Assembly (NCBI GenBank): GCA_029932605.1
Contig: JAOZPT010000001.1
Coordinates: 5,837-69,836, forward strand
Direction: 5' to 3'
Origin: Candidatus Zixiibacteriota bacterium
GTDB taxonomy: Bacteria > Zixibacteria > MSB-5A5 > UBA10806 > 4484-95
Length of the DNA stretch: 64,000 bases
Part shown: positions 12,911 to 64,000 of the stretch, piece after piece
How positions within the stretch are numbered: the first letter of the stretch is position 1
How the letters are laid out: the number at the start of each line of letters is the position of its first letter
Translations under genes and position numbers: made by a program
Notes under the pieces: model-generated
Seen by the model: the letters and a program-made list of their open reading frames with translations, nothing else
What the model was told of the DNA's origin: nothing
Database searches by the model: none

Positions 12911-14227
12911 TTATTTTAAATAAGTCACTTTTGCCGTGGATGATTGGTTTTTCTGCAAAGCGAAATTACGGCCAGAAATTTTTATAAAATATATTCCAGA
13001 TACCAAATTTTCAGGATTCCATACAATAGAGTAACTTCCGTTCTCGAAAACACCTTTTTCAAGGTTAGTAACAAGTTTCCCATTGATGTTATAAATATCC
13101 AGTGAAATTGATGTTACCCTAGCAATCTCGAATCTGATTGTAGCTGCAGAATTAAATGGATTGGGATAACAACCGGTTATCTTGAAACTTACCGGCAGTA
13201 AATTATTGTTGTTATCGATGCTGTTTATATAACTAGGTAGAAGAACAAACAATGAATCGCCATCGGCTAATAACAGGTAGTCGCCATAAACAGCACTTCC
13301 GCGTGCTGTATTAGGACTATCGAATATTGCCAGCAATGAAGGATTCAAAGGGTTATTGACAGAAACAGCGATAAGGCCTCCTGTGTCATCGGCAAGATAG
13401 GCAATTGTATCGGATATAGTAACCCTGTTTAAATAACCCGGGGTGTCGAATGTCGTCAGGCTATCCGGGTGTAAAGGGTCGTTTAAATCAAATATGACCA
13501 TCCCCTCTTGCCCGCAGGCCAAATACAGGTTTTCTGCGGTCATGGTGATATCCGAACCTCCCGTATCGAGTCTGAATGAATCTAAGAGAACCGGATTTAT
13601 CGTATCGGCAAGAGAATATGTTAAAAGCCCGTAATCCTGGTCAGCGATATAAATTGTAGTGCCATTTACCGCAACCGATGCTGTATATCCAAATGGCGGG
13701 ATATATCCCACCTGTTGCGGATTGGAGTTATCTGTGACATCAAGTATGACCAGACCATTGAGAAAGTCAGCTACATATAACAGATTTTCGTATAAAAACA
13801 GATCTATAGTGGTGCCAAGGGTATTGAAAGCTCCAATTGAATCAGGGGAAGCTGGTTGAGACAGGTCAACGATTGTCACTCCTCTGTTCCAGTGGGCAAG
13901 GTAGGCGATGTTATCTGAAACGATGATATCATTTACGAAAGCATCGTCAAAGTATGAAGAGACGTAAATGGGCACTTCAGGTATAACGATATTGAATATC
14001 GAAAGGCCGGCATCACCATCGGCAACCAAGGCGACATTGTCATATATCGCCACAGATTGGGCCTGCCCGGGAGTGTTTGTTACACCGATTACATCGAATT
14101 GCCAGTCATACTGGCAGAATGTTACTGTTGATAATAATAATATCAGTATAGTTGCAGTTGTCGGTAAATTCCGCATAAAATTACCCATATTAAAAACTTG
14201 CAAATAATATACCTGTTGTAAATACAT
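12911..14227 (-). CDS. LVIVD-repeat beta-propeller protein with T9SS C-terminal sorting domain
   Basis: 438 aa. Signal peptide, then repeated L-x-I/V-x-D-like blades (LVILDVTDNSNPQQ, VTIVDLSQPASP, MVIFDLNDPLHP, LIAVSVNNPLNP). C-terminal YPNPFNSAATIRF ... GIYFIKI matches the Por secretion-tail pattern. Confidence 0.7.
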   Translation of the reverse strand: MYLQQVYYLQVFNMGNFMRNLPTTATILILLLSTVTFCQYDWQFDVIGVTNTPGQAQSVAIYDNVALVADGDAGLSIFNIVIPEVPIYVSSYFDDAFVNDIIVSDNIAYLAHWNRGVTIVDLSQPASPDSIGAFNTLGTTIDLFLYENLLYVADFLNGLVILDVTDNSNPQQVGYIPPFGYTASVAVNGTTIYIADQDYGLLTYSLADTINPVLLDSFRLDTGGSDITMTAENLYLACGQEGMVIFDLNDPLHPDSLTTFDTPGYLNRVTISDTIAYLADDTGGLIAVSVNNPLNPSLLAIFDSPNTARGSAVYGDYLLLADGDSLFVLLPSYINSIDNNNNLLPVSFKITGCYPNPFNSAATIRFEIARVTSISLDIYNINGKLVTNLEKGVFENGSYSIVWNPENLVSGIYFIKISGRNFALQKNQSSTAKVTYLK

Positions 14228-25258: not shown

Positions 25259-25681
25259 TTAATGCAGGTGTTTGGAGATCAGTTTAGTCATCTCGAACAT
25301 GCTGACTTTACCCTTGCCACCGAAAATCTTTCTCAGTTTATCATCAGCATTGATCATGGTCCTTTTGAACCTATCCTGTAGTCCGTGCTTTTTAATATAC
25401 GCCCAAATCTTTTTAGTGACCTGAGTCCTGGGTAGGGGCTTACTTCCGACGATTGCACTGAGTGCTAAGCTGGGTGTCCATGGCCTCATGAAAGCTGGAT
25501 TTGGTTTGCGTTTGGCTTTCTTTTTTGCTACTTTCTTCTTAGCTACTTTCTTTTTCGCTACTTTCTTCTTAGCCTTTTTTTTCTTGGCAACTTTTTTCTT
25601 GGCAACTTTTCTTTTTGTAGCTTTTTTCTTTGCTACTTTTTTCTTAGCGGTTTTCTTCCTGGCCTTTTTCTTCGCTGGCAT
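25259..25681 (-). CDS. SWIB/MDM2-domain protein with N-terminal lysine/alanine-rich histone-H1-like repeats
   Basis: The likely true start is MPAKKK (ATG 25681..25679), with AGGAGAGG upstream. About 13 tandem (V/A)AKKK(K) pentapeptide units are followed by LSAIVGSKPLPRTQVTKKIWAYIKKHGLQD ... MFEMTKLISKHL, which matches the SWIB/MDM2 fold. The ORF track extends the start to 25750. Confidence 0.7.
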   Translation of the reverse strand: MPAKKKARKKTAKKKVAKKKATKRKVAKKKVAKKKKAKKKVAKKKVAKKKVAKKKAKRKPNPAFMRPWTPSLALSAIVGSKPLPRTQVTKKIWAYIKKHGLQDRFKRTMINADDKLRKIFGGKGKVSMFEMTKLISKHLH

Positions 25682-26198
25682 ACGCCTCTCCTGGTTAAAG
25701 GTTAGTAGTTGGTTTACAAAATTTCTCTCTCGATTAAGACTCCAATCCACAACTTATTCTTCAAGAAATAGAAAACTCTACCAATCCTGCAACATTGTAG
25801 GAGTAAATTGCGAAACATTTCAAATAAAAATTATGATTTTTTTAAAAAATTACATTATAAAAATGGATTTTAATTACAAATAATTTTATAATATGATATT
25901 TAATAATGATAATCCAAGTTTTTATCAAATAGTACAAGTTGTAATTTTTCCGTATATAGAAGGAGGGCTATTCAAAAGATGAGCATATTTGTACAAAATT
26001 ATATTCAAATAGAATTATCTTTTACCTGATTTATTAGACAGCAAGATGGTATAAATAGATTTGGTTTTATATAGATTTTAAAAACCTTCTCTTGATATGA
26101 TTCTTGTTTGGAAGTATCTTTTATGAAGCTGGGTTTTTTAATAGCCTGTATCGTCCAAACAGAAGTTGGGATTGACGATAATGGTAAGAGGATAAATC

Positions 26199-27176
26199 AT
26201 GGCTGATAAGGTAACAATTCGCAAATTTCTTAAAAGGCATTTCAAACATTTTAATGCTGCGGTAATAGTTGGGGCCGCGGAGTCCTGGGTAACCCACCTT
26301 GAGAATGGGGGAAAGATGTTTTTGACTTTAGCGGGCGCGCTTAGCACCGGCGAGATAGGTATCTCATTAGCGGAGATGATTCGTCGTGATAAGGTACATG
26401 GCATATGTGCTACCGGTGCCAATCTCGAGGAGGATATATTCAACCTTGTAGCCCATAGTCATTACCGCCGTGTTCCCGATTATCGAACACTTACTCCCAA
26501 ACAGGAACAGGAACTGAAAAATCAGGGCCTGAACAGGGTAACTGATACCTGTATTCCTGAAAGGGAGGCAATGCGCCGGGTGGAGAATAAACTTATCAAA
26601 CTATGGCAAAAGGCTGAAAACAATAAAGAGCGGTTTTTCCCTTACGAATATATCTACCAGCTTATAAGAAGCAGGGAATTGGAAGAATATTATGATATAG
26701 AACCTGAGAACTCGTGGGTGTTGGCCGCCTGTCAAAAAAATATACCGATATTCACCCCGGGCTGGGAGGATTCCACACTGGGCAATGTTTATGTAGCAAA
26801 TGTTATTAAGGGAAACCTTAAGTCGTACAGGCCGATCAAGGGGGGGCTTGAACAGATGGCTTTTCTGGTCGAATGGTATCGTTGGATCACCAATCGATGT
26901 TCTCTGGGCTTTTTCCAGATCGGTGGTGGCATCGCTGGCGACTTTGCTATATGTGTGGTTCCACTTATAATGCAGGACCTAAAAGAGGAATGCCGTCTCT
27001 GGGGATATTTTGCCCAGATATCGGATAGCACAACGTCATATGGTTCTTACAGCGGAGCTATACCGAATGAGAAGATTACCTGGGGAAAACTGGATATAGA
27101 TACGCCAAAATTTATTATCGAATCCGATGCCTCTATTGTCGCGCCGTTAATTTTTAGCTATGTTCTGGGTAGCTGA
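26199..27176 (+). CDS. deoxyhypusine synthase (DHS) family protein, bacterial DHS-like
   Basis: 325 aa. TLAGALSTGEIG, CATGANLEEDIF, QIGGGIAGDF, STTSYGSYSGAIPNEKITWGKL and SDASIVAPLIF line up with the conserved blocks of archaeal/eukaryotic DHS (TLAGAM..AG, STGANL.HD, GGGVPKNF, ETGGLSGA..EAISWGK, GDATIVFPLL). Confidence 0.75.
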   Translation: MADKVTIRKFLKRHFKHFNAAVIVGAAESWVTHLENGGKMFLTLAGALSTGEIGISLAEMIRRDKVHGICATGANLEEDIFNLVAHSHYRRVPDYRTLTPKQEQELKNQGLNRVTDTCIPEREAMRRVENKLIKLWQKAENNKERFFPYEYIYQLIRSRELEEYYDIEPENSWVLAACQKNIPIFTPGWEDSTLGNVYVANVIKGNLKSYRPIKGGLEQMAFLVEWYRWITNRCSLGFFQIGGGIAGDFAICVVPLIMQDLKEECRLWGYFAQISDSTTSYGSYSGAIPNEKITWGKLDIDTPKFIIESDASIVAPLIFSYVLGS

Positions 27177-28362: not shown

Positions 28363-28767
28363 TTATTTTGTTCCCACCAACAGCACGCCACCAAGTATAA
28401 GGACCAATCCGATCCATTTGGTCAAGGAAAAAGGCTCTTTGAACATAAAAAACGAGACCAGTATAATGGCTCCGTAGGCAAGACTTGTGACAATGGGGTA
28501 GGCTATCGAGATGTCAATTTTTGATAAAAGCACCATGTAACCCCCGACAGATGATACATAGCAAAAAAGTCCAACCAGCACAGCTATATTTGTGAATATA
28601 CGGGAAAAGTTCGTAAGGAAAGCTGTGGGCGTGATAGCACCCAATTGATTCATCCCGATTTTTAAAAAGACATGGCCGCAGATGTTAAAAGTAACAACGA
28701 AAAGCATTACCATATAGCGGGACATTTCAGGCTCCTTTAAAAGAAAAGATTCTAAATTTGTTAACAC
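28363..28767 (-). CDS. small EamA/SMR-like 4-TM protein (ArnE/ArnF-like candidate lipid-linked sugar flippase subunit)
   Basis: 120-134 aa depending on start (probable start MSRYMVML at 28725). Four hydrophobic helices with DMT/EamA-like spacing. Confidence 0.5.
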   Translation of the reverse strand: MLTNLESFLLKEPEMSRYMVMLFVVTFNICGHVFLKIGMNQLGAITPTAFLTNFSRIFTNIAVLVGLFCYVSSVGGYMVLLSKIDISIAYPIVTSLAYGAIILVSFFMFKEPFSLTKWIGLVLILGGVLLVGTK

Positions 28768-28858
28768 TCCATAGAGATATTTTGATTGGGCTGATAAGTG
28801 TATTATAATGTATTTTTACGATGATGAACATGATGCTTGTATATTGGTTTCATGTTTA

Positions 28859-29944
28859 CTAATATTTTTGAAAGAGCTGGCCCCAATCTGTTTCTTTCAG
28901 CCATTTATTAAAAATCTTTTTACCCTTGGTTGGATACCACAATTTATCATGGAAAAGAGCAGAGGCAAAAACGAATATATAAACGATAGGAGTGTGAAAC
29001 ATAAGTTTCTGGAGTACCTTAAGAGGAGAGAACCATAAAATATCACCTACTTTCGAGGCCATGTTATCACCGACCGAAAAGCCGAAATTCATCTTCGAGA
29101 TATCCTCACCGATGATCTCTATTTGACTTACATCGCCACAGCCTAAGCCGGCATCGTGTCCCATTCTTATATATTTAATTGACATTGGTTCAAACCCCAT
29201 GATTTTGGTGGCGACTGCATCTATAGCTACTTGGTCGGCAGAGGCGAGGATGATATCTTTTTTGTGTGGCGTCATTGTCCGCGGTCCAGGTCCCGAGCCG
29301 GCTGTTGTACCATCCATGAAACAGAAAATACCTGAATGTATCTCTTTTTGAATTTGCAAAAGGTCAACCAGGGTCTCGTGTATAACAGAGTGGGTGTAAT
29401 GGCGCTTGGTATTTAAAAGACCACCGAAAGCATTTTTCATAGCGCCGGTAGTGGTCGTGTAAATATGAGTTTTTACGGTGGGTAGGTGGACGATGTTTTT
29501 TCCTATGAAAAATTCAGGTATCTTTATACCCCTTGAGAAAATCTTGTCTAAAACGAGCATCTTTGCTTTTGGTTTATATTCTATCCATTTTAAATCGGAT
29601 GGGTCGTTGTTATATCTTTCAGGGATAGAATATTTTTCATATACTGGTTTTAGTTTGAGGAGCTTACCGCCGGTATAGGGATTAGTAACCACGGTATCAT
29701 TGTGAACTGCTACAATATCAGTAATACCGGCTTTTTTTAGGGCTTTAATTGTTCCCTCGACTTGCCAGGGAACTGAGTTTGCACCTGGAAACGGCAGATG
29801 CCACGAGATATTGTCTTTTAAAATGGTTGTATTATCAGCCACCAGAGAATCCTTCAATCCGGCAACCTGCCCCGCCCTTATATAGTCATCTATAACTTTA
29901 TCAGGAGAGGTTTTTAATACAGCGACTTTTGTTTTACTGCTCAT
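28859..29944 (-). CDS. DUF362-domain protein
   Basis: 361 aa. KVAVLK at the N-terminus, LPTVKTHIYTTTTGAMKNAFGG, DGTTAGSGPGPRT and ASADQVAIDAV match the conserved DUF362 blocks. Confidence 0.55.
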   Translation of the reverse strand: MSSKTKVAVLKTSPDKVIDDYIRAGQVAGLKDSLVADNTTILKDNISWHLPFPGANSVPWQVEGTIKALKKAGITDIVAVHNDTVVTNPYTGGKLLKLKPVYEKYSIPERYNNDPSDLKWIEYKPKAKMLVLDKIFSRGIKIPEFFIGKNIVHLPTVKTHIYTTTTGAMKNAFGGLLNTKRHYTHSVIHETLVDLLQIQKEIHSGIFCFMDGTTAGSGPGPRTMTPHKKDIILASADQVAIDAVATKIMGFEPMSIKYIRMGHDAGLGCGDVSQIEIIGEDISKMNFGFSVGDNMASKVGDILWFSPLKVLQKLMFHTPIVYIFVFASALFHDKLWYPTKGKKIFNKWLKETDWGQLFQKY

Positions 29945-30822
29945 ACTTTACCCTCAAACTGTAAAATAATTAAAACAGTGGTTATCCATAGTGCCACACA
30001 TATTAAAAGGGGTATGTCCGTAACAAGTAATTTTGTGGGATTGCCTCCCTGCTCTTTCTGGTGGATAAGATACAGATATCTGAATATCCCATAGAGCACA
30101 AACGGCACTGTTAGAACTAGATTACCTGTCCCTAACTTTTCCTTTACATCAGGTGAAAGGGTGTAAAATGTGTACGCCACCACGGTGGAGGCGGTAACCA
30201 CACTTATCATTTGGTCTAAAAAATATTTTGAATAATGTGCCAACGATTGCCGGTGCGAAACGGCTCCGTTTCCAAGAATCTCCAGTTCATGTCGTCTCTT
30301 GGAAAATCCTAAAAAGAGGGCTAAAAGAATTGTACATACTAAGAGCCAGGCCGAGATCGGCACTTCTATAGCGGCCGCTCCAGCAACGGCCCTTAGTACA
30401 AAACCCAGCGCCAAGCTCATGACGTCTATAATAACCACATTTTTCAAACCTATGTTGTAAGCTAGATTTAAAATGATATAGATACCAAGATAAATCATAA
30501 ATGTTAAACCCAGGGAATAACCGACCAGTATACTGAGAGCAAGTAGAAATAAGATGGTTATAGAAGCTGTTTTTACAGGGAGTTGGCCTGATGCTATCGG
30601 TCTGTATTTTTTGGTTGGATGATGCTGGTCTTTGCTGAGGTCTGTGATATCGTTGACATAATAAATTGCCGATACGGCGAAGCAGAATGCCAGAAACCCT
30701 TTTATAGCCAGCATCACCGAGATGGGTTCGCTATATTTTTTGGCAAATATTAAAGCTGCAAATACAACGAGGTTTTTAACCCAGTGATGAGGCCTAGCGG
30801 TTTTGATGATAGCACTAAGCAT
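29941..30822 (-). CDS. UbiA-family polyprenyl-phosphate 5-phosphoribosyltransferase-like (decaprenyl-phosphate phosphoribosyltransferase homolog)
   Basis: 293 aa, about 8 TM helices. N-terminal ARPHHWVKNLVVFAALIF and the Asp-rich motif YYVNDITDLSKDQHHPTKKYRPIASGQL parallel Rv3806c-type DPPR synthases (NDxxDxxxD ... HPTK.xRPIA). Confidence 0.7.
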   Translation of the reverse strand: MLSAIIKTARPHHWVKNLVVFAALIFAKKYSEPISVMLAIKGFLAFCFAVSAIYYVNDITDLSKDQHHPTKKYRPIASGQLPVKTASITILFLLALSILVGYSLGLTFMIYLGIYIILNLAYNIGLKNVVIIDVMSLALGFVLRAVAGAAAIEVPISAWLLVCTILLALFLGFSKRRHELEILGNGAVSHRQSLAHYSKYFLDQMISVVTASTVVAYTFYTLSPDVKEKLGTGNLVLTVPFVLYGIFRYLYLIHQKEQGGNPTKLLVTDIPLLICVALWITTVLIILQFEGKV

Positions 30823-30997: not shown

Positions 30998-31963
30998 TTA
31001 TAGTTCTTCTTTATCGTTGTTGGATAATGGATTTTTATCAAAATTTATTTCACGTGTTTTTCCGAAATTAATGGTGAATGAAAAGAAATGCGTCTGGCCT
31101 AAGTCCTGGCCGGGGTTGAATGCATAATCGATACGTCCCCACATGAACTTTAGCCCGGCACCAAAATTAACCATGTTAGATTGGTTATCGATACCGAGGT
31201 CACCAAGACCTGTTCTTAAGTTTAAGGCATTGCCCAGATTGTATTCCATTCCAGCGGAAAAGCTTGTTTCACCTGTAAATGCTACTTTTGTTCCCACCAT
31301 CATCGTTATAGGAATATTTATGGGGCTGAAAGAACTACCAACGGAGACCGAGGAGGGAAGCTTGTAGCTCTGCTCATCATATTTAACTTTGGGGCCAAGA
31401 TTATTAACAACGAAACCGAACGTAAATGTATTAATCAAATATTGAATTCCCATATCCAGAGCATAACCAGAGGCTTTAATATCTGCCAACTTTTCCTCTA
31501 TGTATTTCCCGCTTAGGCCAAGGTATAAAGCTCCTGACAATCTCCGGCTATAAGAGGCGATTGCCGTTAAACTATAAGGTCTGATACTTCCATATTGCTG
31601 GTCATACATATTGTAAGTATCGATCTGTCCCATGTGAAGATAAGAAGCTGATACTCCGATTGTTGAGTTGGTTTTCATGGGAATAGCTACAGCTATAAAT
31701 TCATATGATATATCCTGAAGCCATGAATTGTGCATAAAATTTAAGCCTGGTTGCTCAATTGAAGATAAACCAGCTGGATTGAAGTATGTTGAGGCTATGT
31801 CATTACTTATCGCCCAGCTTGCTCCACCCAAAGCAGCATGTCGAGCAGATACACTTATGTTTAGGAAATCTGCGGAGGTAATACCTCCAGCGGTAGCTGT
31901 ATTTATTAGGGTAATGCTCAGTATTATCGTAATAATAGAAATAAATTTCATTTGTTTTATCAT
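30998..31963 (-). CDS. PorV/PorQ-family outer-membrane beta-barrel protein (T9SS-associated)
   Basis: Start chosen at MIKQMKF (GGAGGG 7 nt upstream), giving a signal peptide. The ORF track starts at 32041. ARHAALGGASWAISNDIASTYFNPAGL is the hallmark N-terminal motif of PorV/PorQ-like proteins. It ends in an aromatic-rich beta-barrel C-terminus. Confidence 0.6.
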   Translation of the reverse strand: MIKQMKFISIITIILSITLINTATAGGITSADFLNISVSARHAALGGASWAISNDIASTYFNPAGLSSIEQPGLNFMHNSWLQDISYEFIAVAIPMKTNSTIGVSASYLHMGQIDTYNMYDQQYGSIRPYSLTAIASYSRRLSGALYLGLSGKYIEEKLADIKASGYALDMGIQYLINTFTFGFVVNNLGPKVKYDEQSYKLPSSVSVGSSFSPINIPITMMVGTKVAFTGETSFSAGMEYNLGNALNLRTGLGDLGIDNQSNMVNFGAGLKFMWGRIDYAFNPGQDLGQTHFFSFTINFGKTREINFDKNPLSNNDKEEL

Positions 31964-32371
31964 TAGAACACCCTCCTCTGATGATGGAATATGCAAATGA
32001 TATGCCATCAAGCAGACCCCCCTGGAGGTTGTTTGTAACATATTCTGTTACAACAAGATAAATGTTGCACCAAGATAACAGTTAGTCGGGGTGTTTGGGA
32101 TGTATTTGGTTTAATATTTTGGCAATAATTAAGAACTAATGGCATTTTTAAAGACACAATCCTTTTGAACCTTATAACTCATTGATACTTATGGTGTTCA
32201 AGCCCTTTATCAAAACGATTTTTACTTGCTTAATTGTTGAACAAATCCATCTTTTGAACATATTTTTTTACTATCATGGTTATTGGTTAAAGTCAATAGT
32301 TAATTTATAAAACTCCCCAATTTTACCGGAAATACAATTATAGAAATGTAAGCATGGCGGTGTGTAATCAT

Positions 32372-33652
32372 TTATAGCCTGGAAGCTAATAGTTTTAAGA
32401 ACAATCCAACGTCCGTAACGATACCGGTCGTTTGTTTTGATCCCCTGTCGGCAAGTTTTGTAACAACTGAGGGATTGATATCCACGCAAATGGTACTTAC
32501 CCAGGCGGGAATCATGTTACCGGTGGCAATTGAATGGAGCATGGAAGAAAGCATGATTACTAATTCGACACCTTTGAGAGCCCTGGCATAAGCAGCTTGG
32601 GCCTGAATCATGTCATTTATTGTCTCCGGGAGAGGACCATCATCACGGAGCGAGCCGGCGAGAACAAAAGGGACATTAAACTTAATACAACTATACATTA
32701 TTCCGCTGTGAAGCACTCCGGCTTGAACCATCTTTTTTATTGAGCCATATTTATAAACCTGATTGATGGCCCTGATATGGTTTTTATGGCCCTCCTCGCG
32801 TGGCTTACCCGTTTTTATATCCACTCCCAGGGAGGTGCCGTAAAGAGCCTGTTCGATGTCGTGGACAGCAAGGGCATTTCCCGATAGCAGAACATTTATG
32901 AAACCTTTCCTGATCAGCTTGCATATCGAATCACCGGCACCGGTATGTACAGCCACCGGTCCAACCACAAATGCCACCTTCTTTTTGTTACTTTTTAGCA
33001 AATCGGCGATATTACTTACCGCCAGCTCCACCTTCTTCTCGGAGGAGACCTCTGCCGACATGAATTGAAAATCGCTTCTTTCACGTTGTTTGAATTCTGG
33101 GGTGATTTTTATTCCGGATAGACCGCAAACTATCTTATCACCCTTTTTGATATCTCGAAGCTTAATACATCGGGGGATTCCATTTTTGACAACAATCACT
33201 GAATCCATACGCTGGTTTCGCACCCTGCGCCATCTCCCGTTCAGGCGAATATGGGAAAGGTAATTTGTGGTAGAATAGAAATCTTCAGGAGCACAACCAT
33301 CCTTTGGAGCATTTTTTACAATTGCTGGTTTATTGTCAACGATAATACAACCGAGGTTGTGAAGCTGTTCAACGATGTATGAAAGTTTTTTTGAAGAAGT
33401 GGCTTTTACAAGTATAGAGGCTTTAGTTTCATCGGTGTTGGTTCGTCCCATGACAAATGAGGTTATCTCAAATTTTCCACCCAGACCTATGATTTTGTCG
33501 AGGATATTGGACATTATGCCCGAATCAACCAGGTGTCCATGGGCGGTCACCTCGCGGCTATACCAGCGTTTGGGAGGATAAACTTTCACATCGTTGTTAT
33601 CGGCGAGTTTATTTTTTTGATTAATAATGTGACTCACCAGCCAGCTATGCAA
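32372..33652 (-). CDS. LOR/SDH-family protein (TIGR00300-like; archaeal-type ornithine-cyclodeaminase-like)
   Basis: 426 aa. Blocks GHLVDSGIMSNILDKIIGLGG, VAVHTGAGDS and LLSGNALAVHDIEQALYGT resemble the LOR/SDH bifunctional conserved region. Assignment from memory. Confidence 0.45.
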   Translation of the reverse strand: MHSWLVSHIINQKNKLADNNDVKVYPPKRWYSREVTAHGHLVDSGIMSNILDKIIGLGGKFEITSFVMGRTNTDETKASILVKATSSKKLSYIVEQLHNLGCIIVDNKPAIVKNAPKDGCAPEDFYSTTNYLSHIRLNGRWRRVRNQRMDSVIVVKNGIPRCIKLRDIKKGDKIVCGLSGIKITPEFKQRERSDFQFMSAEVSSEKKVELAVSNIADLLKSNKKKVAFVVGPVAVHTGAGDSICKLIRKGFINVLLSGNALAVHDIEQALYGTSLGVDIKTGKPREEGHKNHIRAINQVYKYGSIKKMVQAGVLHSGIMYSCIKFNVPFVLAGSLRDDGPLPETINDMIQAQAAYARALKGVELVIMLSSMLHSIATGNMIPAWVSTICVDINPSVVTKLADRGSKQTTGIVTDVGLFLKLLASRL

Positions 33653-33737: not shown

Positions 33738-34259
33738 TTATTTATTCAAACCGCTTTTATATTTTTCTCTGGTTTTTTCCAGAAAGGTAATGAATTCATT
33801 TTCAAGATAATCCGGATATGTCCATGGTAATTTCTGGAATTTGCCATCGGCGTAAATCAGTGTGACCTCAGCCCAGATGCCCTGGCTGAGGTAAATTCGA
33901 TGGGAGAAATTTTTAGTGGAGGCTAAAACAAATTTGGATGTCTCAAGGTATCCTGGGTCAAGGTTGACCTGGCGCTTGCCGTCTTTAGTGTAAATGTATT
34001 CTATATCGATAGTCGTGCGTTTGGCCAGCCAGAGATTATCTGCCAGGAAAGGTCTTTCGAAGCTGAGAAGTAGTTTTTTTAGATTTGGCCCCATCTCCTT
34101 TGTGTAATAATCAGTGTGAGTGAAATCGATTAGCTTTGATCTGTCCTCGACCAGGCCGAAAGCGTTTTCAAGGTTGGTGATGATATCCTCAAGGTTGACT
34201 TTCGGAGATATGGTCACACCACAGATCAGTTTCACCGTGGGCGGATTTAGATCAATCAT
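33738..34259 (-). CDS. hypothetical protein (DUF4416-like)
   Basis: 173 aa. Begins PPTVKLICGVT, like the DUF4416 family. Overlaps the upstream gene by 8 nt. Confidence 0.35.
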   Translation of the reverse strand: MIDLNPPTVKLICGVTISPKVNLEDIITNLENAFGLVEDRSKLIDFTHTDYYTKEMGPNLKKLLLSFERPFLADNLWLAKRTTIDIEYIYTKDGKRQVNLDPGYLETSKFVLASTKNFSHRIYLSQGIWAEVTLIYADGKFQKLPWTYPDYLENEFITFLEKTREKYKSGLNK

Positions 34260-35022
34260 TATTTACTCCTTTGCAGGCCTTAATACACATACCGCATATC
34301 ATTACACCTATGCCCCGTCTTTTTTCGAATTGCTTTAATAGCTCGAAGCAGGCTTTACCATTGAACTTCTCAATACCATCGGGTGAAATCGCCTTTGCCG
34401 GGCAGGCGGTGATACATTCATAGCAGGCACCGCAGTCAGCTGTTACTGGCGAATCCGTTTTGAGGGGCATATCTGTCAAAAGGCTGGCTAAGCGGATAGC
34501 CGCGCCATACTCTGGATGCACGATTAGCCCATTTCTGCCGAGAAAACCAAGGCCAGCATGCAAGGCGGCGTGCCTTTGCGATAGATGCGAGCGCTGGTTG
34601 ACCCAATCGGTGATTACACTGGCGGGGATGGGCAAGGCCTCGAACCCTTGTGATTGAATAAACTGGCCAAGACCGAATGTGATTTTATCCAAAAGATTAT
34701 TTGCCTGCCGGTAGTGAGCTTTATAGATAAGATTAGGGCCGTCGATCAAGGTTTCTAAAACTTTTCGCTGTATTCGAACAGCAATACTTACTATGAATGG
34801 TAATGTTTGAGCCACCTCTTTAATTTCATCGTTGATATAGTCATATATTTTAGTTGTTTTTGTTACGCCGAAGAGGTCGGCGCCAAGGTCTGTGGCTTTC
34901 TGTTTTAGCATATCGTAATTGTCCATACAGAGAAAGTAAATGATTGAGTTAGGTATGTCAATTGGGATGTTGTTCCATTTCGTCGTAGGTAAAAACCGTA
35001 ACCTTGCTGTTAGTATAAACAC
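34252..35022 (-). CDS. QueG-like (epoxyqueuosine-reductase-like) 4Fe-4S protein, short form
   Basis: HAALHAGLGFLGRNGLIVHPEYG resembles the QueG AGLGW.GKN motif. CGACYECITACPAKAI is a CxxCxxCxxxCP ferredoxin motif, with a second Cys cluster CGMCIKAC. It is shorter than canonical QueG. Confidence 0.45.
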   Translation of the reverse strand: MFILTARLRFLPTTKWNNIPIDIPNSIIYFLCMDNYDMLKQKATDLGADLFGVTKTTKIYDYINDEIKEVAQTLPFIVSIAVRIQRKVLETLIDGPNLIYKAHYRQANNLLDKITFGLGQFIQSQGFEALPIPASVITDWVNQRSHLSQRHAALHAGLGFLGRNGLIVHPEYGAAIRLASLLTDMPLKTDSPVTADCGACYECITACPAKAISPDGIEKFNGKACFELLKQFEKRRGIGVMICGMCIKACKGVNND

Positions 35023-57095: not shown

Positions 57096-57099
57096 TTTT

Positions 57100-59555: not shown

Positions 59556-60481
59556 TGATTGAAACGAGTATAATAATACCCGTTAGAAACCAGAAAAAGT
59601 CGTTGCTTATGACATTAAAAACTCTTAAGCGGCAGATTAGAAATCTGAAGATTTTCGAGGTCATAATTTGTGATGATGGTTCCACTGATGGTACAGAAGA
59701 GGAGGTAAAAAAGCTTCGTTATCCGATATTTTTAAAATATTTCAGGAATGCCCCACCGCTGGGCAGAGCGGTTAATCGCAATTTGGGATATGAACGTTCA
59801 AGCGGACAAAACCTTATATTTCTCGATGGTGATATGGTGCCGACCGAAGGATATATCGAGGCTATGCTTACAGCCACATCCACTGATATAGTAAAACTTG
59901 GTAATGTTAAACACCCACCTGCAGAACAAACAGGTCGTTTGGAAAAATACCTTTATTCACGAGGCCGTTTTGGCTCTCGATATAAAAACACCCCTCTTCC
60001 AGGAAGGCTATTTACTAGCAATAACTTCTTTATAAGCAAACGAAATTTTACTAGGGTTGGTGGATTTGACCCGAATTTCAAAAGCTGGGGTGGTGAGGAT
60101 ATCGATTTTGGCTTGAGGCTTGAAGATTTAGAAATTCCCATAAGAATCGAGCCGGCAGCTTTAACTTACCATTACCATAAACGCACTGTTGAATCGTTGA
60201 TGAAGGATTTTTACAGTTTTGGAAAAAACTCTTTCGAATACCTGATTAAAAAACATCCCGCCTTTTTAGAACAATTGCCAGCTCATTTCCTTGGATTAAA
60301 AAATGCTCACCTGATATATAAATTAATCTCTAAGCTTACCGTTAACAAAACCGCTCTTGGCATTGTTAGCAAAACCGTATCGTCCTTTGAAAAATTTAAC
60401 TGGCCAGATTTCATATTTGATTATTTATTCTGGGGAAACCTTGTATTGGGTTATAGAAAAAGTGAGAAGTCGATTGGATAA
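59555..60481 (+). CDS. family-2 glycosyltransferase (GT2, GT-A fold)
   Basis: SIIIPVRN ... ICDDGSTDGT ... FLDGDMVP (DxD). The ATG overlaps the GT4 stop (TGATG). Confidence 0.8.
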   Translation: MIETSIIIPVRNQKKSLLMTLKTLKRQIRNLKIFEVIICDDGSTDGTEEEVKKLRYPIFLKYFRNAPPLGRAVNRNLGYERSSGQNLIFLDGDMVPTEGYIEAMLTATSTDIVKLGNVKHPPAEQTGRLEKYLYSRGRFGSRYKNTPLPGRLFTSNNFFISKRNFTRVGGFDPNFKSWGGEDIDFGLRLEDLEIPIRIEPAALTYHYHKRTVESLMKDFYSFGKNSFEYLIKKHPAFLEQLPAHFLGLKNAHLIYKLISKLTVNKTALGIVSKTVSSFEKFNWPDFIFDYLFWGNLVLGYRKSEKSIG

Positions 60482-62009
60482 AAAAGCGATTGTTTTAATC
60501 GTTTTGGTAATGGTAATAGCTGTGGTTTACTGTCTTCTGTTGTTTGGTGGATATTCGGGTACAAGCGATACCTGTGATTACGGAGGGCTGGCATTAAATC
60601 TTATTTCAGGAAAGGGATTTACTGTCAACCATGTTTTACCATTGTCGCTGGTTTTTATTCCCAATGTTCCTCAGCCGAACTGTACCTGGGCACCCGGGTA
60701 TCCAGTTTTTCTGGCAGGGGTGTTTACGGTTTTAGGCGTTTCGGATTATTCAATTTTAGGAGCAAACCTGTTTTTGTTTCTGATGGTGATTATCTCGGGT
60801 TATTTTTTAACTAAAAAATATGTTAATTATGAGGCCGCTCTGATTTTCGTGCTTTTTATGGGTTTGAATCAGTACTCTTATTATACAATCCTTTATGGTT
60901 CGCCTGAGATGCTGGCGGCCGCTTTGTTAACTTTTTCACTTCTTTTGTGGGGTGATAATTACAGACGGGTGATCATAGCGGGTCTTTTTTACGGACTGGC
61001 GGTTCTTACACGTTACCAGATGGTAATTTTGTTGCCGGTATATCTCGTGTTTTTTAAAAAGATAAACAAAAAATACATCGTTTTTATTGCGGTAGTTGTT
61101 ATTGTATGTGCTGGCTGGCTGGTGCGTAATATTGTTCTTTTTGGTGACCCCTTGTTTTGCCTGCAACGTTATGGGGAGTTTACCAAGGGGATGGGTATCG
61201 GGGATGATTTTTACTACACGTATCGTTCACTTGAACCTGCCGGGTTTTTTTATGTGATATCTACATATCCGTTGCTGTTTTTGCGCAAACTGGCGGTTGG
61301 TGTAACGTATTTTTTAAGAACGCTTCCAGAACACCTTAATTCTTTTGGCCTGTTTCTTGTTTTCTGGGCGATAATTTATCGGGAAAAGTTAGCTACTTTG
61401 AATTCTAATAAATCTCGAATGGGAGTTAATCTCTGGCGACCGGCAGTTAGGTTTTTGATTATAGGTGTTGCATTAACTGTTATTATATGCCTGTTCGATG
61501 GCCAGCATCATCGGCACCTTTACATATTCAACCCTCTTATGATTATGATATCATCCGCTGGTTTTAACGATTTCGCTTTGAGAACGGGTATTATGAAAAA
61601 AAGGTTCTACTATCTCGTTTTGCTTTTATTTTTCTTGATACCCTTACAATTTCCCCAGCAGGAGGTTTGGTTGAGAGATCTCAAGGTTAGGATTAAAGCC
61701 GAGATTCCTGTTTATAGAGAGGTGGCTATAAATTTATCCTGCTATGGCCCGGTTGCTTCTGATGCCAGCGATGCCTTGTGGTGGTATAGCGGTCTGAATA
61801 CCGTCTGGATGCCAACTAACTATGAGACGTTTGTGAAAGTCGATTCGCTGATAGACATAAAGGCTGTTTATTTTCAAAAGGACGATTGGCTGAAAAAACT
61901 TGACAAAGAGGAAAGACGAAAGTTTATGATTTCCTTTCCAGAAATAAGGCGTTTCAATGATGGCTCTGTATTATATATCAAGAGCTTGGTTGACGGAAGA
62001 TTAGAGTGA
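60462..62009 (+). CDS. polytopic membrane protein, GT-C-like glycosyltransferase candidate (PMT_2/ArnT-like)
   Basis: About 515 aa with 11 or more TM helices. Size and organisation are like GT39/GT83-type lipid-linked sugar transferases. The start is uncertain: a GTG is possible at 60462, and the ORF track extends to 60357, overlapping the GT2 gene. Confidence 0.4.
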   Translation: MRSRLDKKAIVLIVLVMVIAVVYCLLLFGGYSGTSDTCDYGGLALNLISGKGFTVNHVLPLSLVFIPNVPQPNCTWAPGYPVFLAGVFTVLGVSDYSILGANLFLFLMVIISGYFLTKKYVNYEAALIFVLFMGLNQYSYYTILYGSPEMLAAALLTFSLLLWGDNYRRVIIAGLFYGLAVLTRYQMVILLPVYLVFFKKINKKYIVFIAVVVIVCAGWLVRNIVLFGDPLFCLQRYGEFTKGMGIGDDFYYTYRSLEPAGFFYVISTYPLLFLRKLAVGVTYFLRTLPEHLNSFGLFLVFWAIIYREKLATLNSNKSRMGVNLWRPAVRFLIIGVALTVIICLFDGQHHRHLYIFNPLMIMISSAGFNDFALRTGIMKKRFYYLVLLLFFLIPLQFPQQEVWLRDLKVRIKAEIPVYREVAINLSCYGPVASDASDALWWYSGLNTVWMPTNYETFVKVDSLIDIKAVYFQKDDWLKKLDKEERRKFMISFPEIRRFNDGSVLYIKSLVDGRLE

Positions 62010-62157
62010 GAGCAATTATAGAAGATAAGTTTCGGAAACGGCCGAGAAAAAACCTGAAAGAATTGTTTATATTTAGTTATCTGCTTATAGCTTTTGGAGC
62101 CTATTTCCTTTCGTTGGTACTTTCACGTATAGAAAGGATAAAAGCGTTATTTGGCTT

Positions 62158-64000
62158 ATGAAGTTTATTATTGATTTACTTTTTGGCATTCTATTTAGCA
62201 TGTCGTTAGGGGGGTTAGGGGTTGTTTTCTTCAGGCGGATTTTAAAGACCGAGATCGATTTCTTCAGGGGATTTTTTACTGGATGTGGGATAGCGGTAGT
62301 AGTGTTATTTGTCGGTGGTCTTTTGGGCTTATTCGGCAGGACTTTCTTTTTTATATTTATAATTTTAATTTTTATTTTTGCCATACCGGGGAGGAGAAAG
62401 TTTTTCACTTACAAGTTTATTGTTAACCGGAAATACATTTTGCCTTTGATATTGTTAGCATTGGTTTTGGTTATCACCGGCTTATCATCTCTTTCTCCGC
62501 CTATCAAGAACGATACTTTGTATTACCATCTGGGATTGCCGAAACTATGGTCGATTGATGGTTATTTCAATTTTTACCCGACCATAGTTTTTTCCGCAAC
62601 CGCCTTGAACTCGGAGCTTTTGTTGACACCTATTCTGTCAGTGGTTTCTCCTGAGGCGGCTCAGTTCTTTGTATTTTTAGTTGGTTTGATGGTCATTTTT
62701 CTTCTTGGCGATGGTTTTTCCCGCTTTACCGGTGGTTCCAAGGCGCTGGCTGTTTTATCGCTTTCCGTGGTTCCCCTTTTCATAAGTGGCATGGCAGATG
62801 CTAAAAACGATTATCTTGCCGCTGGTTTTTCCCTTATGTCAGCACTGTTTTATTTTGATTATCTGAAAAGATATAATCCTGGATTTATTTTGTTGGCTGG
62901 CATCTTTGCTGGCCTGGCAGCGGGGACCAAGACCAATGCTTTAATCTTCGTCATGGCTATGTTCATCGTGATTGTCCTTTCACGTCATCGATTAAAGGAT
63001 ATTATTCTTTTTCTGGTTGGAACATTGGTCTTCGGTTTCCCCTGGTATCTCAAAGCATACATCGAAACCGGAAACCCGTTTTTCCCTTTCTATGACAACA
63101 TATTTCATTCTCCATATTGGCGCGAGATTTTCGACGGTTTCAATAGAGTCACATTGCCCGAGGTTGAACATAAAAGCATCTTGAACTTTATAACTTCTCC
63201 GTTCAGGTTGGTTTATTTTCCAGATGTTTTCAGGGGGAGATTGGGGCCCCTGTTATTTATGCTTTTACCTTTATTATTATTTATCAGGAAAATACCGGGA
63301 GTGGTTTTCAAAGCCCTGTTTATTTCAGCTGCATTTTATATCCTGTGGTATCTGGTTTCCGCCAATGCCCGATACATGATGCCTATTGTACCTCTATTAG
63401 CCCTGTTAGCTGCATATGTCATGGACAGGTTTATAAGCATAAGCAGATCGTCTGGCTTAGTTATCATTTGTACTTTAACCCTGTTATTGGCAGTAAACGG
63501 CGTTCAGGTATTCCGTGATGGATTTAGTCGAGCAAAGGCTGCTGTTGGGATTATTGAATACGATGAGTTTTTGCACAAGATAGAAGTGTTAGATCCGAAT
63601 GACGTTTCATCTTCAACAAGATGTCTCGCCATACCTTATTATGATATATGGCAATTTATCAACGTCACCGCTGGGGATGATGCTGTTGTAGGAATATTGT
63701 GCTCAAACTGGAACCGGGCTGATGGTTTTTACCTCGATCGTCACTTTCTTCTTTTAAACCCCACTGAACAGGTTGAGGTTGATTTTTCTGGACGTAGATA
63801 TAACCTAATATCGTCGTTAGTAAAGCATAAAGTGAATTATGTTTTGATAGACAATCTTGTAGTTGAGGAGTTTTCTGCCGGGTCAACTTTTACTGAGGCA
63901 CCGGGCTTTAAAATTTTTAAGCAGGGGGTTACAGATTTCGTTGACATTGTAAAAGAAAACGGTCAATTGGTTTATTTAACTGACCGCTTCGAGTTATACA
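62158..64000 (+). CDS. second polytopic GT-C-like membrane protein; CDS runs off the window end
   Basis: ATG at 62158, open frame to position 64000 (614 or more codons), which is why it is absent from the ORF track. Many TM helices (MKFIIDLLFGILFSMSLGGLGVV ... ) then a large soluble C-terminal region. Confidence 0.4.
   Translation, partial: MKFIIDLLFGILFSMSLGGLGVVFFRRILKTEIDFFRGFFTGCGIAVVVLFVGGLLGLFGRTFFFIFIILIFIFAIPGRRKFFTYKFIVNRKYILPLILLALVLVITGLSSLSPPIKNDTLYYHLGLPKLWSIDGYFNFYPTIVFSATALNSELLLTPILSVVSPEAAQFFVFLVGLMVIFLLGDGFSRFTGGSKALAVLSLSVVPLFISGMADAKNDYLAAGFSLMSALFYFDYLKRYNPGFILLAGIFAGLAAGTKTNALIFVMAMFIVIVLSRHRLKDIILFLVGTLVFGFPWYLKAYIETGNPFFPFYDNIFHSPYWREIFDGFNRVTLPEVEHKSILNFITSPFRLVYFPDVFRGRLGPLLFMLLPLLLFIRKIPGVVFKALFISAAFYILWYLVSANARYMMPIVPLLALLAAYVMDRFISISRSSGLVIICTLTLLLAVNGVQVFRDGFSRAKAAVGIIEYDEFLHKIEVLDPNDVSSSTRCLAIPYYDIWQFINVTAGDDAVVGILCSNWNRADGFYLDRHFLLLNPTEQVEVDFSGRRYNLISSLVKHKVNYVLIDNLVVEEFSAGSTFTEAPGFKIFKQGVTDFVDIVKENGQLVYLTDRFELY

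Follow-up and report, generated by a model that had tools for sequence, protein, structure and literature searches.

A conserved UbiA-DUF362 linkage with flippase-like neighbours suggests a DUF362-containing variant of three-component pentofuranosylation

In a 64,000-nucleotide stretch of DNA (hereafter the window) from candidate division Zixibacteria bacterium 4484_95, a protein of the large DUF362 family (PF04015), which has no assigned function, is encoded between a UbiA-family enzyme and a small membrane protein, and this arrangement raises the question of what a DUF362 protein may contribute to the making of a lipid-linked pentose. The initial annotation of this DNA had described the three genes as a candidate pentose donor module in a Bacteroidota-like host; the source, recognised by a 100% identical protein, belongs to the FCB group and not to the Bacteroidota proper, while the three open reading frames (ORFs) were all recovered on the minus strand and the 4-nt overlap of the first two was confirmed by reading the sequence directly:

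29941-30822, minus strand: UbiA-family ORF, 293 aa
29941-29944, minus strand: UbiA/DUF362 overlap, ATGA, shared by the stop of UbiA and the start of DUF362
28859-29944, minus strand: DUF362 protein ORF, 361 aa
28363-28767, minus strand: small membrane protein ORF, 134 aa from a GTG start
28363..28725, minus strand: small DMT/SMR-type membrane protein, 120 aa from ATG 28725
30998-32041, upstream of the module: PorV/PorQ-family gene, NF033709 181.5 bits (cutoff 90)

By every sequence test available, the UbiA-family protein is a polyprenyl-phosphate phosphoribosyltransferase, the type that had been proposed for it. Besides matching PF01040 (78.5 bits), it scores 301.6 bits with the "decaprenyl-phosphate phosphoribosyltransferase" (DPPRT) model NF008977 (cutoff 234), 215.7 bits with NF008978 (cutoff 207) and 165.8 bits with the actinobacterial equivalog model NF008976, below its cutoff of 474. 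It aligns over its full length with M. tuberculosis Rv3806c (PDB 8j8j; E 4e-36, ~35% identity), whose PRPP, 5'-phosphate and Mg ligands were defined by cryo-EM and mutagenesis (PMC10994848). The Mg-binding NDxxDxxxD motif is kept (N57, D58, D61 and D65 for Rv3806c N73, D74, D77 and D81, residues whose importance is documented in PMC10994848 and PMC11127046), and so are the K/R cluster for pyrophosphate (R10, K71, R74 and K127 for R22, K87, R90 and K143) and a tyrosine, Y122, that corresponds to Y138. As for the 5'-phosphate ligands, K16 and Y54 correspond to K28 and Y70 of Rv3806c, and F141 replaces Y157, a Tyr-to-Phe change that is also seen in some mycobacteria (PMC10994848).

The linkage between UbiA, DUF362 and flippase-like genes turned out to be conserved when 80 DUF362 loci from species-representative genomes were compared, 72 of them with enough flank. 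A UbiA/PPPRS gene lies directly upstream of DUF362 and on the same strand in 34/80 loci (33/72 with enough flank), most of these pairs being separated by a gap of 0-100 nt, and the pairing is spread over at least 10 phyla: it was found in Zixibacteria, Planctomycetota, Bacteroidota, Ignavibacteria, Chlorobiaceae, Bacillota, Spirochaetota, Desulfobacterota, Acidobacteriota and Thermotogaceae, plus Patescibacteria. About 28 pairs of DUF362 and UbiA matches were also found in metagenomes on contigs of equal size. In 31/80 loci DUF362 has a flippase-like neighbour, which comes from any of three families without relation to one another (small 4-TM in 5 loci, EamA 10-TM in 13 and LPG_synthase_TM in 13). 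UbiA was absent within 10 kb of DUF362 in 46/80 loci, and the PorV/PorQ-like gene, which is indeed present upstream as had been noted, was linked to the module in 0/80 related loci. The conserved PPPRS/DUF362/flippase linkage is the first functional context for the DUF362 family, even if DUF362 is a phosphatase or has another role.

Pathways made up of a PPPRS, a phosphatase, an optional epimerase, a flippase and a GT-C enzyme are experimentally established (PMC11127046), and since Gram-negative systems with PPPRS, flippase and GT-C were characterised in 2024 (PMC11127046), the earlier statement that such pathways are essentially uncharacterised outside Actinobacteria does not hold. In Citrobacter youngae O1/O2, ORF15 is a PPPRS-PRP, ORF14 a MATE flippase, ORF12 a GT136 GT-C and ORF13 an SDR epimerase (Kelly et al. 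2024, PMC11127046). In three-component systems of this kind, PRPP is converted into a polyprenyl-P-ribofuranose donor by a PPPRS of the UbiA type, cytoplasmic auxiliary enzymes can alter the pentose before export, the donor is proposed to be flipped by a membrane protein of its own and GT-C enzymes use it outside the cytoplasm; the same donor synthesis and the same kind of flipping are proposed here, and relatives of the module likewise occur in clusters of the O-antigen type, together with Wzm/Wzt, GT2/GT4 and Wzy_C. Unlike the Citrobacter synthase, the one described here has no HAD phosphatase domain; in place of a MATE flippase there is a 4-TM DMT/SMR candidate, with EamA or LPG_synthase_TM in this position in other phyla, DUF362 stands where an SDR or DprE1/E2 would be the accessory enzyme, and no GT-C gene is adjacent in this window, whereas the Citrobacter-type system includes one. 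The mycobacterial pathway (Rv3806c, Rv3807c, DprE1/DprE2, Rv3789, Emb/Aft GT-C) follows a similar logic, from PRPP through lipid-linked ribose and a modified pentose to GT-C; its first enzyme is a full-length homologue with conserved substrate ligands and, as here, a small 4-TM protein is its proposed flippase. Mycobacteria however use the PAP2 phosphatase Rv3807c and the FAD/NADH enzymes DprE1/DprE2, and while the initial annotation had recommended a search of the genome for such genes, a search of the 64-kb window found neither a DprE1/DprE2 pair nor a phosphatase (no HAD, PAP2 or PHP gene among the window ORFs scanned). Their lipid is decaprenyl, whereas it is presumably undecaprenyl here.

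We lean towards reading the three genes as the "donor" half, at the cytoplasmic face, of a DUF362-containing variant of three-component pentofuranosylation, and DUF362 as a candidate for a LarA-like epimerase that would act on lipid-linked ribose. The UbiA enzyme, whose activity is suggested by strong homology, would use PRPP to place 5-phosphoribose on a polyprenyl phosphate, which is probably undecaprenyl-P, giving polyprenyl-P-ribofuranose-5-P. DUF362, which its hydrophobic C-terminal helices would anchor to the membrane, would then remodel the lipid-linked ribose by transient oxidation and re-reduction, meaning a C2' or C3' epimerisation to arabino- or xylofuranose, and a single DUF362 protein would thus carry out the step for which mycobacteria use DprE1 plus DprE2 and Citrobacter an SDR. 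The 5-phosphate would be removed by a separate phosphatase (HAD or PHP in some relatives), the small 4-TM DMT/SMR protein would flip the polyprenyl-P-pentose to the periplasmic face, and a GT-C glycosyltransferase, whose gene is not confidently located here, would add the pentose to a surface glycan.

PF04015 is the sole Pfam family that the DUF362 protein matches (75 bits), and its C-terminal tail (~residues 295-361) is hydrophobic and helical. Its subfamily, at 59% identity or more, is found in at least 594 loci of species-representative genomes, and some homologues carry inteins inserted exactly between K158 and (C/T)159-H160; identities of 59-80% across distant phyla, together with inteins at the core motif, argue that this subfamily is functionally important. 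We found no role of DUF362 in a lipid-linked pentose pathway in the searchable literature, and no mention of DUF362 in PMC11127046 or its supplement, so that such a role would be new, as had been anticipated.

DUF362 and LarA_N share Pfam clan CL0471, and the LarA superfamily already includes sugar-acid C2 epimerases, GntE (both PMC11770544). The PF04015 profile matches genuine LarA at 25.8 bits, and H160, K170 and H185, which are invariant within the DUF362 subfamily down to 31% identity, fall on the same profile columns as LarA H174, K184 and H200 (H200 exactly, the others ±1), forming an H-x9-K-x14/15-H constellation like that of LarA. Since DUF362 keeps putative counterparts of the catalytic His, the cofactor-tethering Lys and the nickel-ligand His of LarA, oxidation and re-reduction would be its most likely chemistry, and we regard the protein as a candidate for a LarA-like fold and for a function as lipid-linked-ribose epimerase. 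The differences are considerable: DUF362 and LarA are 7-11% identical, the DUF362 core has ~290 residues compared with 424 and is followed by the hydrophobic tail, and the substrate would be a lipid-linked furanose, while that of the LarA superfamily, made up of nickel-pincer nucleotide-dependent racemases and epimerases, is a 2-hydroxy acid. The LarA models PF09861 (Lar_N) and PF21113 (LarA_C) gave no match to the DUF362 protein, hhalign and hmmsearch with shallow profiles of our own aligned LarA to DUF362 over one N-terminal motif only, and H81, a possible but uncertain counterpart of LarA His108, is not invariant. The window also encodes a TIGR00300 "nickel-pincer nucleotide-dependent ornithine cyclodeaminase" (510 bits), which implies that the host makes the nickel-pincer cofactor, and no larB, larC or larE was found in the 64-kb window, in the 10 kb beyond its start or among the operon neighbours of related loci. 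The DUF362 subfamily is also present in MAGs assigned to Patescibacteria and Dependentiae, in which nickel-pincer cofactor synthesis would, to our knowledge, be unexpected. The more specific proposal that DUF362 may be a membrane-associated LarA-type (nickel-pincer) single-enzyme epimerase, turning polyprenyl-phospho-ribofuranose into an arabino- or xylofuranose donor, is put forward tentatively, as possible rather than probable.

Alternatively, DUF362 may be the missing 5'-phosphatase that converts polyprenyl-P-ribose-5-P into polyprenyl-P-ribose; as the cofactor of LarA is, for its part, a 5-phosphoribosyl compound, it could be the 5-phosphoribose of the substrate, and not a cofactor, that occupies the conserved LarA-like pocket. 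Every characterised system needs such a phosphatase (PMC11127046), minimal UbiA/DUF362/flippase sets without another phosphatase occur in Zixibacteria, Bacteroidota and Ignavibacteria, and the conserved residues H182, H185, H189, D194, D211, D237 and D242 could bind metal. However, the residues common to DUF362 and LarA are the hydride-transfer and cofactor set, and two independent operons carry a dedicated phosphatase beside DUF362: UbiA / ABC1 / DUF362 / LPG_synthase_TM / PHP / GT87 / membrane protein in Sporomusa sp. KB1, and UbiA / HAD phosphatase / DUF362 / PMT_2 in a Patescibacteria MAG. Because of these PHP and HAD genes, DUF362 is probably not the 5-phosphatase, and we consider this reading unlikely.

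DUF362 may also act in the pathway in another way and without a nickel-pincer cofactor, be it as an oxidoreductase giving a keto- or modified pentose, as an isomerase or as a non-catalytic coupler between synthase and flippase. The linkage is strong, yet silent on chemistry, no lar genes lie nearby, and a Foldseek search of DUF362 against the PDB gave no significant match (best E 0.046). Moreover, in divergent DUF362 relatives, with less than 45% identity, the fold motifs persist but H160 and K170 are lost, showing that the scaffold tolerates the loss of both. Set against this are the extreme conservation of the subfamily (74% mean column identity across phyla), the targeting of the H160 motif by inteins and the match with three key LarA residues, which points to catalysis at that site, and the probability that we attach to such a role is low.

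Far less probable than either is that the UbiA homologue is an ordinary prenyltransferase (for quinones, ether lipids or aromatics) in a neighbourhood unrelated to glycans, even though JGI pipelines call many homologues "4-hydroxybenzoate polyprenyltransferase" and the NDxxDxxxD motif is common to all UbiA enzymes. Models outside the phosphoribosyltransferases (UbiA, MenA-type, heme-O, chlorophyll-synthase and GGGP) score only 16-40 bits on this protein (best 39.9), compared with ~301 bits for the DPPRT model, and the profile scores therefore place it with the latter and not with the MenA, UbiA, heme-O or chlorophyll-synthase enzymes, a grouping that would have spoken against the initial annotation. 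The counterparts of the PRPP 5'-phosphate ligands K28 and Y70, which are described as not conserved in prenyl-transferring UbiA enzymes (PMC10994848), are present together with the whole K/R cluster. In other phyla, genes for glycans are found in the neighbourhood (Bac_transf, GT2/GT4, Wzm/Wzt, Wzy_C and GT-C), with DUF362 / 4-TM standing beside Wzm-Wzt and glycosyltransferases in Nitrospirae and Planctomycetota.

The least credible reading is that the UbiA/DUF362 adjacency is lineage-specific synteny without functional meaning: many other DUF362 neighbours are housekeeping genes conserved only within a lineage (MutL, methylmalonyl-CoA mutase, enolase, GlnA, TldD and IspF) and 36/80 loci have neither UbiA nor a flippase-like gene. 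Yet the pairing is met again in at least 10 phyla, where gene order and flippase family vary and the frames often overlap or almost touch, a pattern that inherited synteny alone would not lead one to expect.

To return to the pentofuranosylation variant that we favour, UbiA and the 4-TM DMT/SMR gene are on the same strand and within 2.5 kb of each other, so that donor synthesis and candidate flippase share one locus. For the small gene, ATG 28725 is the most likely start, rather than GTG 28767: a Shine-Dalgarno sequence (AAAGGAG) lies 7 nt upstream of this ATG, and the resulting 120 aa agree with homologues of 118-121 aa. The protein has four hydrophobic segments in a four-TM SMR/DMT architecture and was first described as ArnE/ArnF-like; its size, four TM segments, DMT/SMR kinship and best NCBIfam matches are in keeping with this, but it stays below the equivalog cutoffs of both ArnF (NF002816, its best match, 43.2 bits, cutoff 99) and ArnE (30.6 bits, cutoff 92), and it scores 33.6 bits with TMEM234 (PF10639, cutoff 30.1), 24.6 bits with SMR (PF00893, cutoff 23.7) and 25.1 bits with EamA. 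Whereas ArnE/ArnF form a heterodimer pair, a single gene is found here, and there are no arn genes. Orthologues lie directly after or beside DUF362 in Zixibacteria (L001, L004-6), Thermotogaceae (L066), Nitrospirae (L084) and Planctomycetota (L089), and in all of these loci, too, the gene is single. ArnE/ArnF carry undecaprenyl-phospho-L-Ara4N, and we propose the small 4-TM protein as a candidate flippase for a cargo that would likewise be a polyprenyl-phospho-pentose.

GT-C-type proteins (PMT_2+TPR, GT87 and DUF2298) are encoded within 10 kb of DUF362 in ~12 loci, and such genes are adjacent in relatives at loci L078, L080 and L081 and in Thermoanaerobaculia. No GT-C gene lies beside the donor genes here, the nearest in the 64-kb window being 30 kb away, but the two GT-C-like polytopic proteins that had been pointed out at 60.4-64.0 kb are both present:

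60357..62009, plus strand: PMT_2 (GT-C-type) polytopic protein, PF13231 26.4 bits, in a glycan gene cluster at 56-64 kb
62077..64000, plus strand, running past the window end: second PMT_2 (GT-C-type) polytopic protein, PF13231 39 bits

These window genes are distant kin of the DUF362-adjacent GT-C genes of other phyla (direct E 1e-6 to 1e-13), the protein at 62077..64000 being weakly similar (E ~1e-6) to a 725-aa membrane protein encoded near DUF362 in Thermoanaerobaculia, and both are possible consumers of the lipid-linked donor.

As a hypothesis, DUF362 can now be tied to polyprenyl-phospho-ribose, the product of a PPPRS, as its class of substrate and to LarA-like hydride shuttling as its chemistry. 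If the preferred reading is true, many phyla of uncultured and environmental bacteria would be added to those with three-component pentofuranosylation, bacteria would possess an alternative to the DprE1/DprE2 step, a drug target in tuberculosis, and lipid-linked sugars would join the known substrates of nickel-pincer enzymes. On the more specific nickel-pincer proposal, more than 10 bacterial phyla would have a DprE1/DprE2-independent route to lipid-linked pentofuranoses and, by extension, the DUF362 family (PF04015) would make up a second branch of nickel-pincer enzymes that has so far gone unrecognised. Sporomusa sp. KB1, which carries the whole operon, is a cultured organism.

All three genes that the initial annotation had proposed as a candidate lipid-linked pentose module are present on the minus strand, with the claimed 4-nt overlap between the first two, where one tetranucleotide, ATGA, holds both the stop codon of UbiA and the start codon of DUF362:

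29941-30822, minus strand, UbiA-family protein, 293 aa
28859-29944, minus strand, DUF362 protein, 361 aa
28363-28767, minus strand, small hydrophobic protein with four transmembrane segments (4-TM), ORF as first described

The true start of the small gene is probably the ATG at 28725, since it is preceded by an AAAGGAG ribosome-binding site and gives a 120-aa protein, as long as its homologues. A promoter and terminator scan of 27.6-32.6 kb gave no more sites than shuffled sequence. The host, described earlier as Bacteroidota-like, does belong to the FCB group, though outside Bacteroidota, since its DUF362 protein is 100% identical to that recorded for candidate division Zixibacteria bacterium 4484_95.

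As had been proposed, the UbiA-family protein sides with the polyprenyl-phosphate phosphoribosyltransferases (PPPRS) rather than with the MenA, UbiA, heme-O or chlorophyll synthases, by NCBIfam scores, alignment with Rv3806c and conserved ligands. It scored 301.6 bits against NF008977 ('decaprenyl-phosphate phosphoribosyltransferase'; cutoff 234) and 215.7 bits against NF008978 (cutoff 207), and the NCBIfam prenyltransferase models (among them those for 4-hydroxybenzoate, heme O and chlorophyll synthase and the GGGP type) all gave 16-40 bits. Its score against NF008976, which appears to model the actinobacterial enzymes proper, was 165.8, under the cutoff of 474. Full-length alignment with Mycobacterium tuberculosis Rv3806c (PDB 8j8j) was obtained at an E-value of 4e-36. 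In that enzyme, the ligands of Mg, ribose 5'-phosphate and pyrophosphate were named by cryo-EM and mutagenesis, and the phosphoribose-binding sites were stated not to be conserved across the wider UbiA superfamily (PMC10994848). Mapping through the alignment showed that R22, K28, Y70, N73, D74, D77, D81, K87, R90, Y138 and K143 of Rv3806c are identical in the window protein, and that Y157 is replaced by Phe, as it also is in some mycobacteria. This identity is not new, since NCBI already gives the Zixibacteria homologues the same name.

Close homologues of the DUF362 protein (65-90% identity) occur in Zixibacteria, Planctomycetota, Nitrospirae and Patescibacteria MAGs, and a scan of one genome per species returned at least 594 DUF362 loci. 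The best 80 of these (59-76% identity) come from Zixibacteria, Planctomycetota, Verrucomicrobiota, Bacteroidota, Ignavibacteria, Chlorobiaceae, Acidobacteriota, Chloroflexota, Bacillota (including the isolate Sporomusa sp. KB1), Myxococcota, Desulfobacterota, Spirochaetota, Thermotogaceae and others. Running our own HMMs on all six-frame ORFs of these 80 loci, we found DUF362 immediately preceded by a co-oriented PPPRS-type UbiA gene in 34 of them (33 of the 72 whose upstream flank reached 1.2 kb or more) and adjoined by a putative flippase gene on the same strand in 31, so that the linkage claimed for the module does recur in relatives. At least one of the two partners was present in 44 of the 80 loci and both in 21. 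The UbiA-DUF362 pair spans at least 10 phyla in variable gene order: the 4-TM gene lies between UbiA and DUF362 in a Thermotogaceae locus (L066), and an LPG_synthase_TM gene does so in two Bacillota loci (L028 and L030). About 28 metagenomic matches of DUF362 and UbiA fell on contigs of identical size, many of them 2.6-8 kb long. The further neighbours that recur beside DUF362 are housekeeping genes, each tied to particular lineages (MutL, methylmalonyl-CoA mutase, enolase, GlnA, TldD and IspF).

Several genes surround the module in the window:

30998-32041, minus strand, PorV/PorQ-family outer-membrane protein
32372-33652, minus strand, TIGR00300 'ornithine cyclodeaminase, nickel-pincer nucleotide-dependent' (510 bits, cutoff 411), two genes upstream of the module
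33738-34259, minus strand, DUF4416 protein, beside the TIGR00300 gene
34252-35022, minus strand, QueG/reductive-dehalogenase-like 4Fe-4S protein, following the DUF4416 gene

The PorV-like gene, mentioned earlier as lying near the module, is real but stands beside DUF362 in none of the 80 loci. We placed it outside the module together with the ornithine cyclodeaminase, DUF4416, QueG-like, glyoxalase and deoxyhypusine-synthase-like genes, since none of the six recurs beside DUF362 in these loci.

Relatives carry operons with additional components, and GT-C-type proteins were encoded within 10 kb of DUF362 in about 12 of the 80 loci (GT87 being a GT-C family):

Sporomusa sp. KB1 (L080; NZ_VLKC01000001.1, about 71.5-79.1 kb): UbiA, ABC1 (UbiB-like), DUF362, LPG_synthase_TM, PHP phosphoesterase, GT87, 524-aa polytopic protein
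Patescibacteria MAG (L081-83): four Wzy_C+TPR proteins, UbiA, HAD-like hydrolase (149 aa), DUF362, PMT_2 GT-C
Thermoanaerobaculia: DUF362, LPG_synthase_TM, PMT_2+TPR GT-C
Thermoanaerobaculia (L078): UbiA, DUF362, giant PMT_2-DUF2298-NHL protein
Nitrospirae (L084) and Planctomycetota (L089): DUF362, 4-TM protein, next to Wzm/Wzt-type ABC transporter genes, GT2/GT4/GT9 and Wzz
A further locus (L087): UbiA-DUF362 pair at the end of an operon with radical-SAM genes, SDR, GT4 and a Bac_transf initiating transferase
A further locus (L085): DUF362 alone

The ABC1/UbiB-type atypical kinase gene of Sporomusa sp. KB1 (8812-10005 of its locus), placed between the PPPRS and DUF362 genes, is the sole such case in the 80 loci; UbiB-family proteins are otherwise tied to isoprenoid-quinone lipids.

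The small protein had been called ArnE/ArnF-like, which holds insofar as it is a DMT/SMR-type half-transporter with ArnF and ArnE as its best named matches, but these matches are far under cutoff. Its 4-TM orthologues are encoded after DUF362 in Zixibacteria, Thermotogaceae, Nitrospirae and Planctomycetota, and EamA or LPG_synthase_TM proteins take their place in other phyla. Since three mutually unrelated membrane families (small 4-TM, n=5; 10-TM EamA, n=13; LPG_synthase_TM, n=13, confirmed by Pfam) share one position beside DUF362, this arrangement argues for a candidate flippase role. Possible consumers of a lipid-linked pentose had been pointed out at the far end of the window, where a glycan cluster lies:

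56133-64000, plus strand, FemAB-like GNAT, 458-aa protein without family match, GT4, GT2 and two PMT_2 (GT-C) proteins, the last passing the window end

The two PMT_2 proteins (60.4-64 kb) are plausible candidates for this function; direct comparison showed nothing tying them to the module. Iterated searches had made the window GT-C proteins seem akin to those near DUF362 in Acidobacteria, but direct comparison gave weak similarity only, and we therefore did not count them as linkage.

The DUF362 protein itself is very highly conserved, with a mean column identity of 74% in a 20-sequence cross-phylum alignment, and only 260 clusters match it at E ≤1e-30 in a library of 50%-identity representatives. 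Its subfamily is marked by the motif ILKDNISW ... TG[AS]MKNAFGG. Some homologues (P0242, P0243 and P0249; 527-896 aa) carry inteins, either mini or, in one, with an endonuclease-sized insert; in the motif HLPTVK-(C/T)HIYTTTTGAMKNAFGG, the insertion point is precisely the junction of K158 with (C/T)159-H160. The same two-piece match was seen in the long representatives P0246, P0248, P0301 and P0322. Intein insertion points usually mark highly conserved functional cores. Long apparent fusion ORFs with DUF362 (585-1927 aa, in GC-rich loci) proved to be out-of-frame read-through into the next gene. The NCBI label 'iron-sulfur cluster-binding protein' is baseless, since the protein has only two cysteines, neither of them conserved.

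DUF362 and the N-terminal domain of LarA, the nickel-pincer lactate racemase, share one Pfam clan, and the LarA tree has been rooted with DUF362 sequences as outgroup (PMC11770544). Genuine LarA is matched by the PF04015 profile at 25.8 bits, over the cutoff, and Loigolactobacillus LarA proteins (P0395-P0397) show, besides the LarA models, a precomputed and reproducible PF04015 match at residues 82-245; the two Pfam families thus overlap more in sequence than their names imply. Reading PF04015 profile coordinates from fragments, and checking LarA sequence and numbering against 5huq, we placed residues 155-186 of the window protein on columns 106-137 without gaps, which puts H160 on column 111, K170 on 121 and H185 on 136. 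LarA residues 154/155, 161, 191, 194 and 201 fall on columns 91/92, 98, 127, 130 and 137, and from these flanking residues His200 maps to column 136 exactly, Lys184 to 120/121 and His174 to 110/111. In LarA, His200 is a nickel ligand, Lys184 the covalent cofactor tether and His174 catalytic. The order of secondary-structure elements around H160, K170 and H185 presumably agrees with the LarA structure as well. These three residues do not vary among members of the subfamily as low as 31% identity and are lost in remoter relatives; H81 has the spacing expected of a LarA His108 counterpart, yet it is not invariant. A proposed match between 'ASADQVAIDAV' of DUF362 and 'PLDQNIYQAV' of LarA (Y294/Q295/K298) was rejected because secondary-structure order and Pfam coordinates put this helix opposite LarA 255-269. 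Searching PDB sequences with the DUF362 protein and its alignment gave no meaningful match, and hhalign and hmmsearch with our own alignments paired only residues 32-79 with LarA 57-104, non-significantly, these profiles being too shallow because all LarA sequences retrieved were at least 77% identical. Relatives at 30-45% identity (P0254, P0255, P0260, P0269 and others) keep PWQLEG, LVDLL, MDGT and ASxDxVAxDA and lack H160 and K170, and in some the C-terminal end is a true transmembrane helix; such paralogues may be non-catalytic or of different catalysis.

Two roles may be considered for DUF362, and we favour that of an epimerase, since two operons have a phosphatase of their own and the residues shared with LarA are the hydride-transfer set. 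LarA oxidises a CH-OH group to a ketone and returns the hydride to the opposite face, giving racemisation or epimerisation. On polyprenyl-P-ribose, such chemistry would proceed by way of the very 2'-keto intermediate made by DprE1 and reduced by DprE2, and the LarA family already includes sugar-acid C2 epimerases (PMC11770544). The last ~65 residues of DUF362, forming hydrophobic or amphipathic helices, would suit an enzyme acting on a lipid-linked substrate. DUF362 could also be a phosphatase, since removal of the 5-phosphate is obligatory in all characterised systems and no phosphatase is seen in the minimal UbiA/DUF362/flippase sets; however, a dedicated PHP or HAD phosphatase lies directly beside DUF362 in two independent operons, and the hydride-transfer residues also speak against this role. 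The epimerase reading calls for caution. No larB, larC or larE was found in the window, in the 10 kb past the window start, or beside DUF362 in related loci; the TIGR00300 gene implies that the organism makes the nickel-pincer cofactor. Since this cofactor is itself a 5-phosphoribosyl compound, the LarA-homologous pocket of DUF362 might hold the phosphoribose of the substrate instead. LarA homologues are richest in Myxococcota, Planctomycetota and Negativicutes (PMC11770544), and the overlap of these taxa with carriers of this DUF362 subfamily lends the epimerase reading weak support.

The initial annotation was right in outline and needs updating to the three-component framework described for Citrobacter youngae, in which several components add side chains of alpha-ribofuranose or of xylofuranose (Kelly et al., PNAS 2024, PMC11127046). 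There, a UbiA-type polyprenyl phosphoribose synthase with a fused HAD phosphatase makes the donor, a MATE flippase and a GT-C enzyme (GT136) complete the system, and the SDR epimerase ORF13 converts ribose to xylose; the authors link this system to the mycobacterial pathway (Rv3806c, Rv3807c, DprE1/DprE2, Rv3789 and Emb/Aft) and to Pseudomonas pilin arabinosylation (PMC11127046). Like such systems, the module has a synthase and a candidate flippase, and relatives add a phosphatase and GT-C proteins; unlike them, its conserved extra component is DUF362, which is absent from the text and supplement of PMC11127046. Our literature search found no paper tying DUF362 or nickel-pincer enzymes to polyprenyl-linked sugars. 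The new element is a very highly conserved DUF362 protein in predicted PPPRS-based pentofuranosylation modules of many phyla, with a LarA-like catalytic constellation, and a concrete, testable function can be proposed for a large DUF family.

Elsewhere in the window, a 163-aa protein (25259-25750, minus strand) combines a SWIB/MDM2 domain (PF02201, 93.8 bits), uncommon in bacteria, with a fused long repeat that is rich in Lys and Ala and resembles histone H1 (KKKVAKKK...). A teichoic-acid-like set (8814-12107, plus strand) comprises a Polysacc_synt flippase, an IspD/MobA-like nucleotidyltransferase and a CDP-glycerol glycerophosphotransferase (PF04464, 236 bits), in a genome that has genes for a TonB receptor and the PorV-like protein, both of the outer membrane. 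Hallmarks of Type IX secretion, unlinked to the module, are the PorV/PorQ-family protein and a protein of LVIVD repeats (12911-14227, minus strand) that ends in a C-terminal sorting domain, Por_Secre_tail. Finally, a deoxyhypusine-synthase-like protein (26199-27176, plus strand; PF01916, 141 bits) falls under every equivalog cutoff, with a homospermidine biosynthesis protein model as its best match, and together with the nearby ornithine cyclodeaminase gene it hints at polyamine or arginine-derived metabolism.
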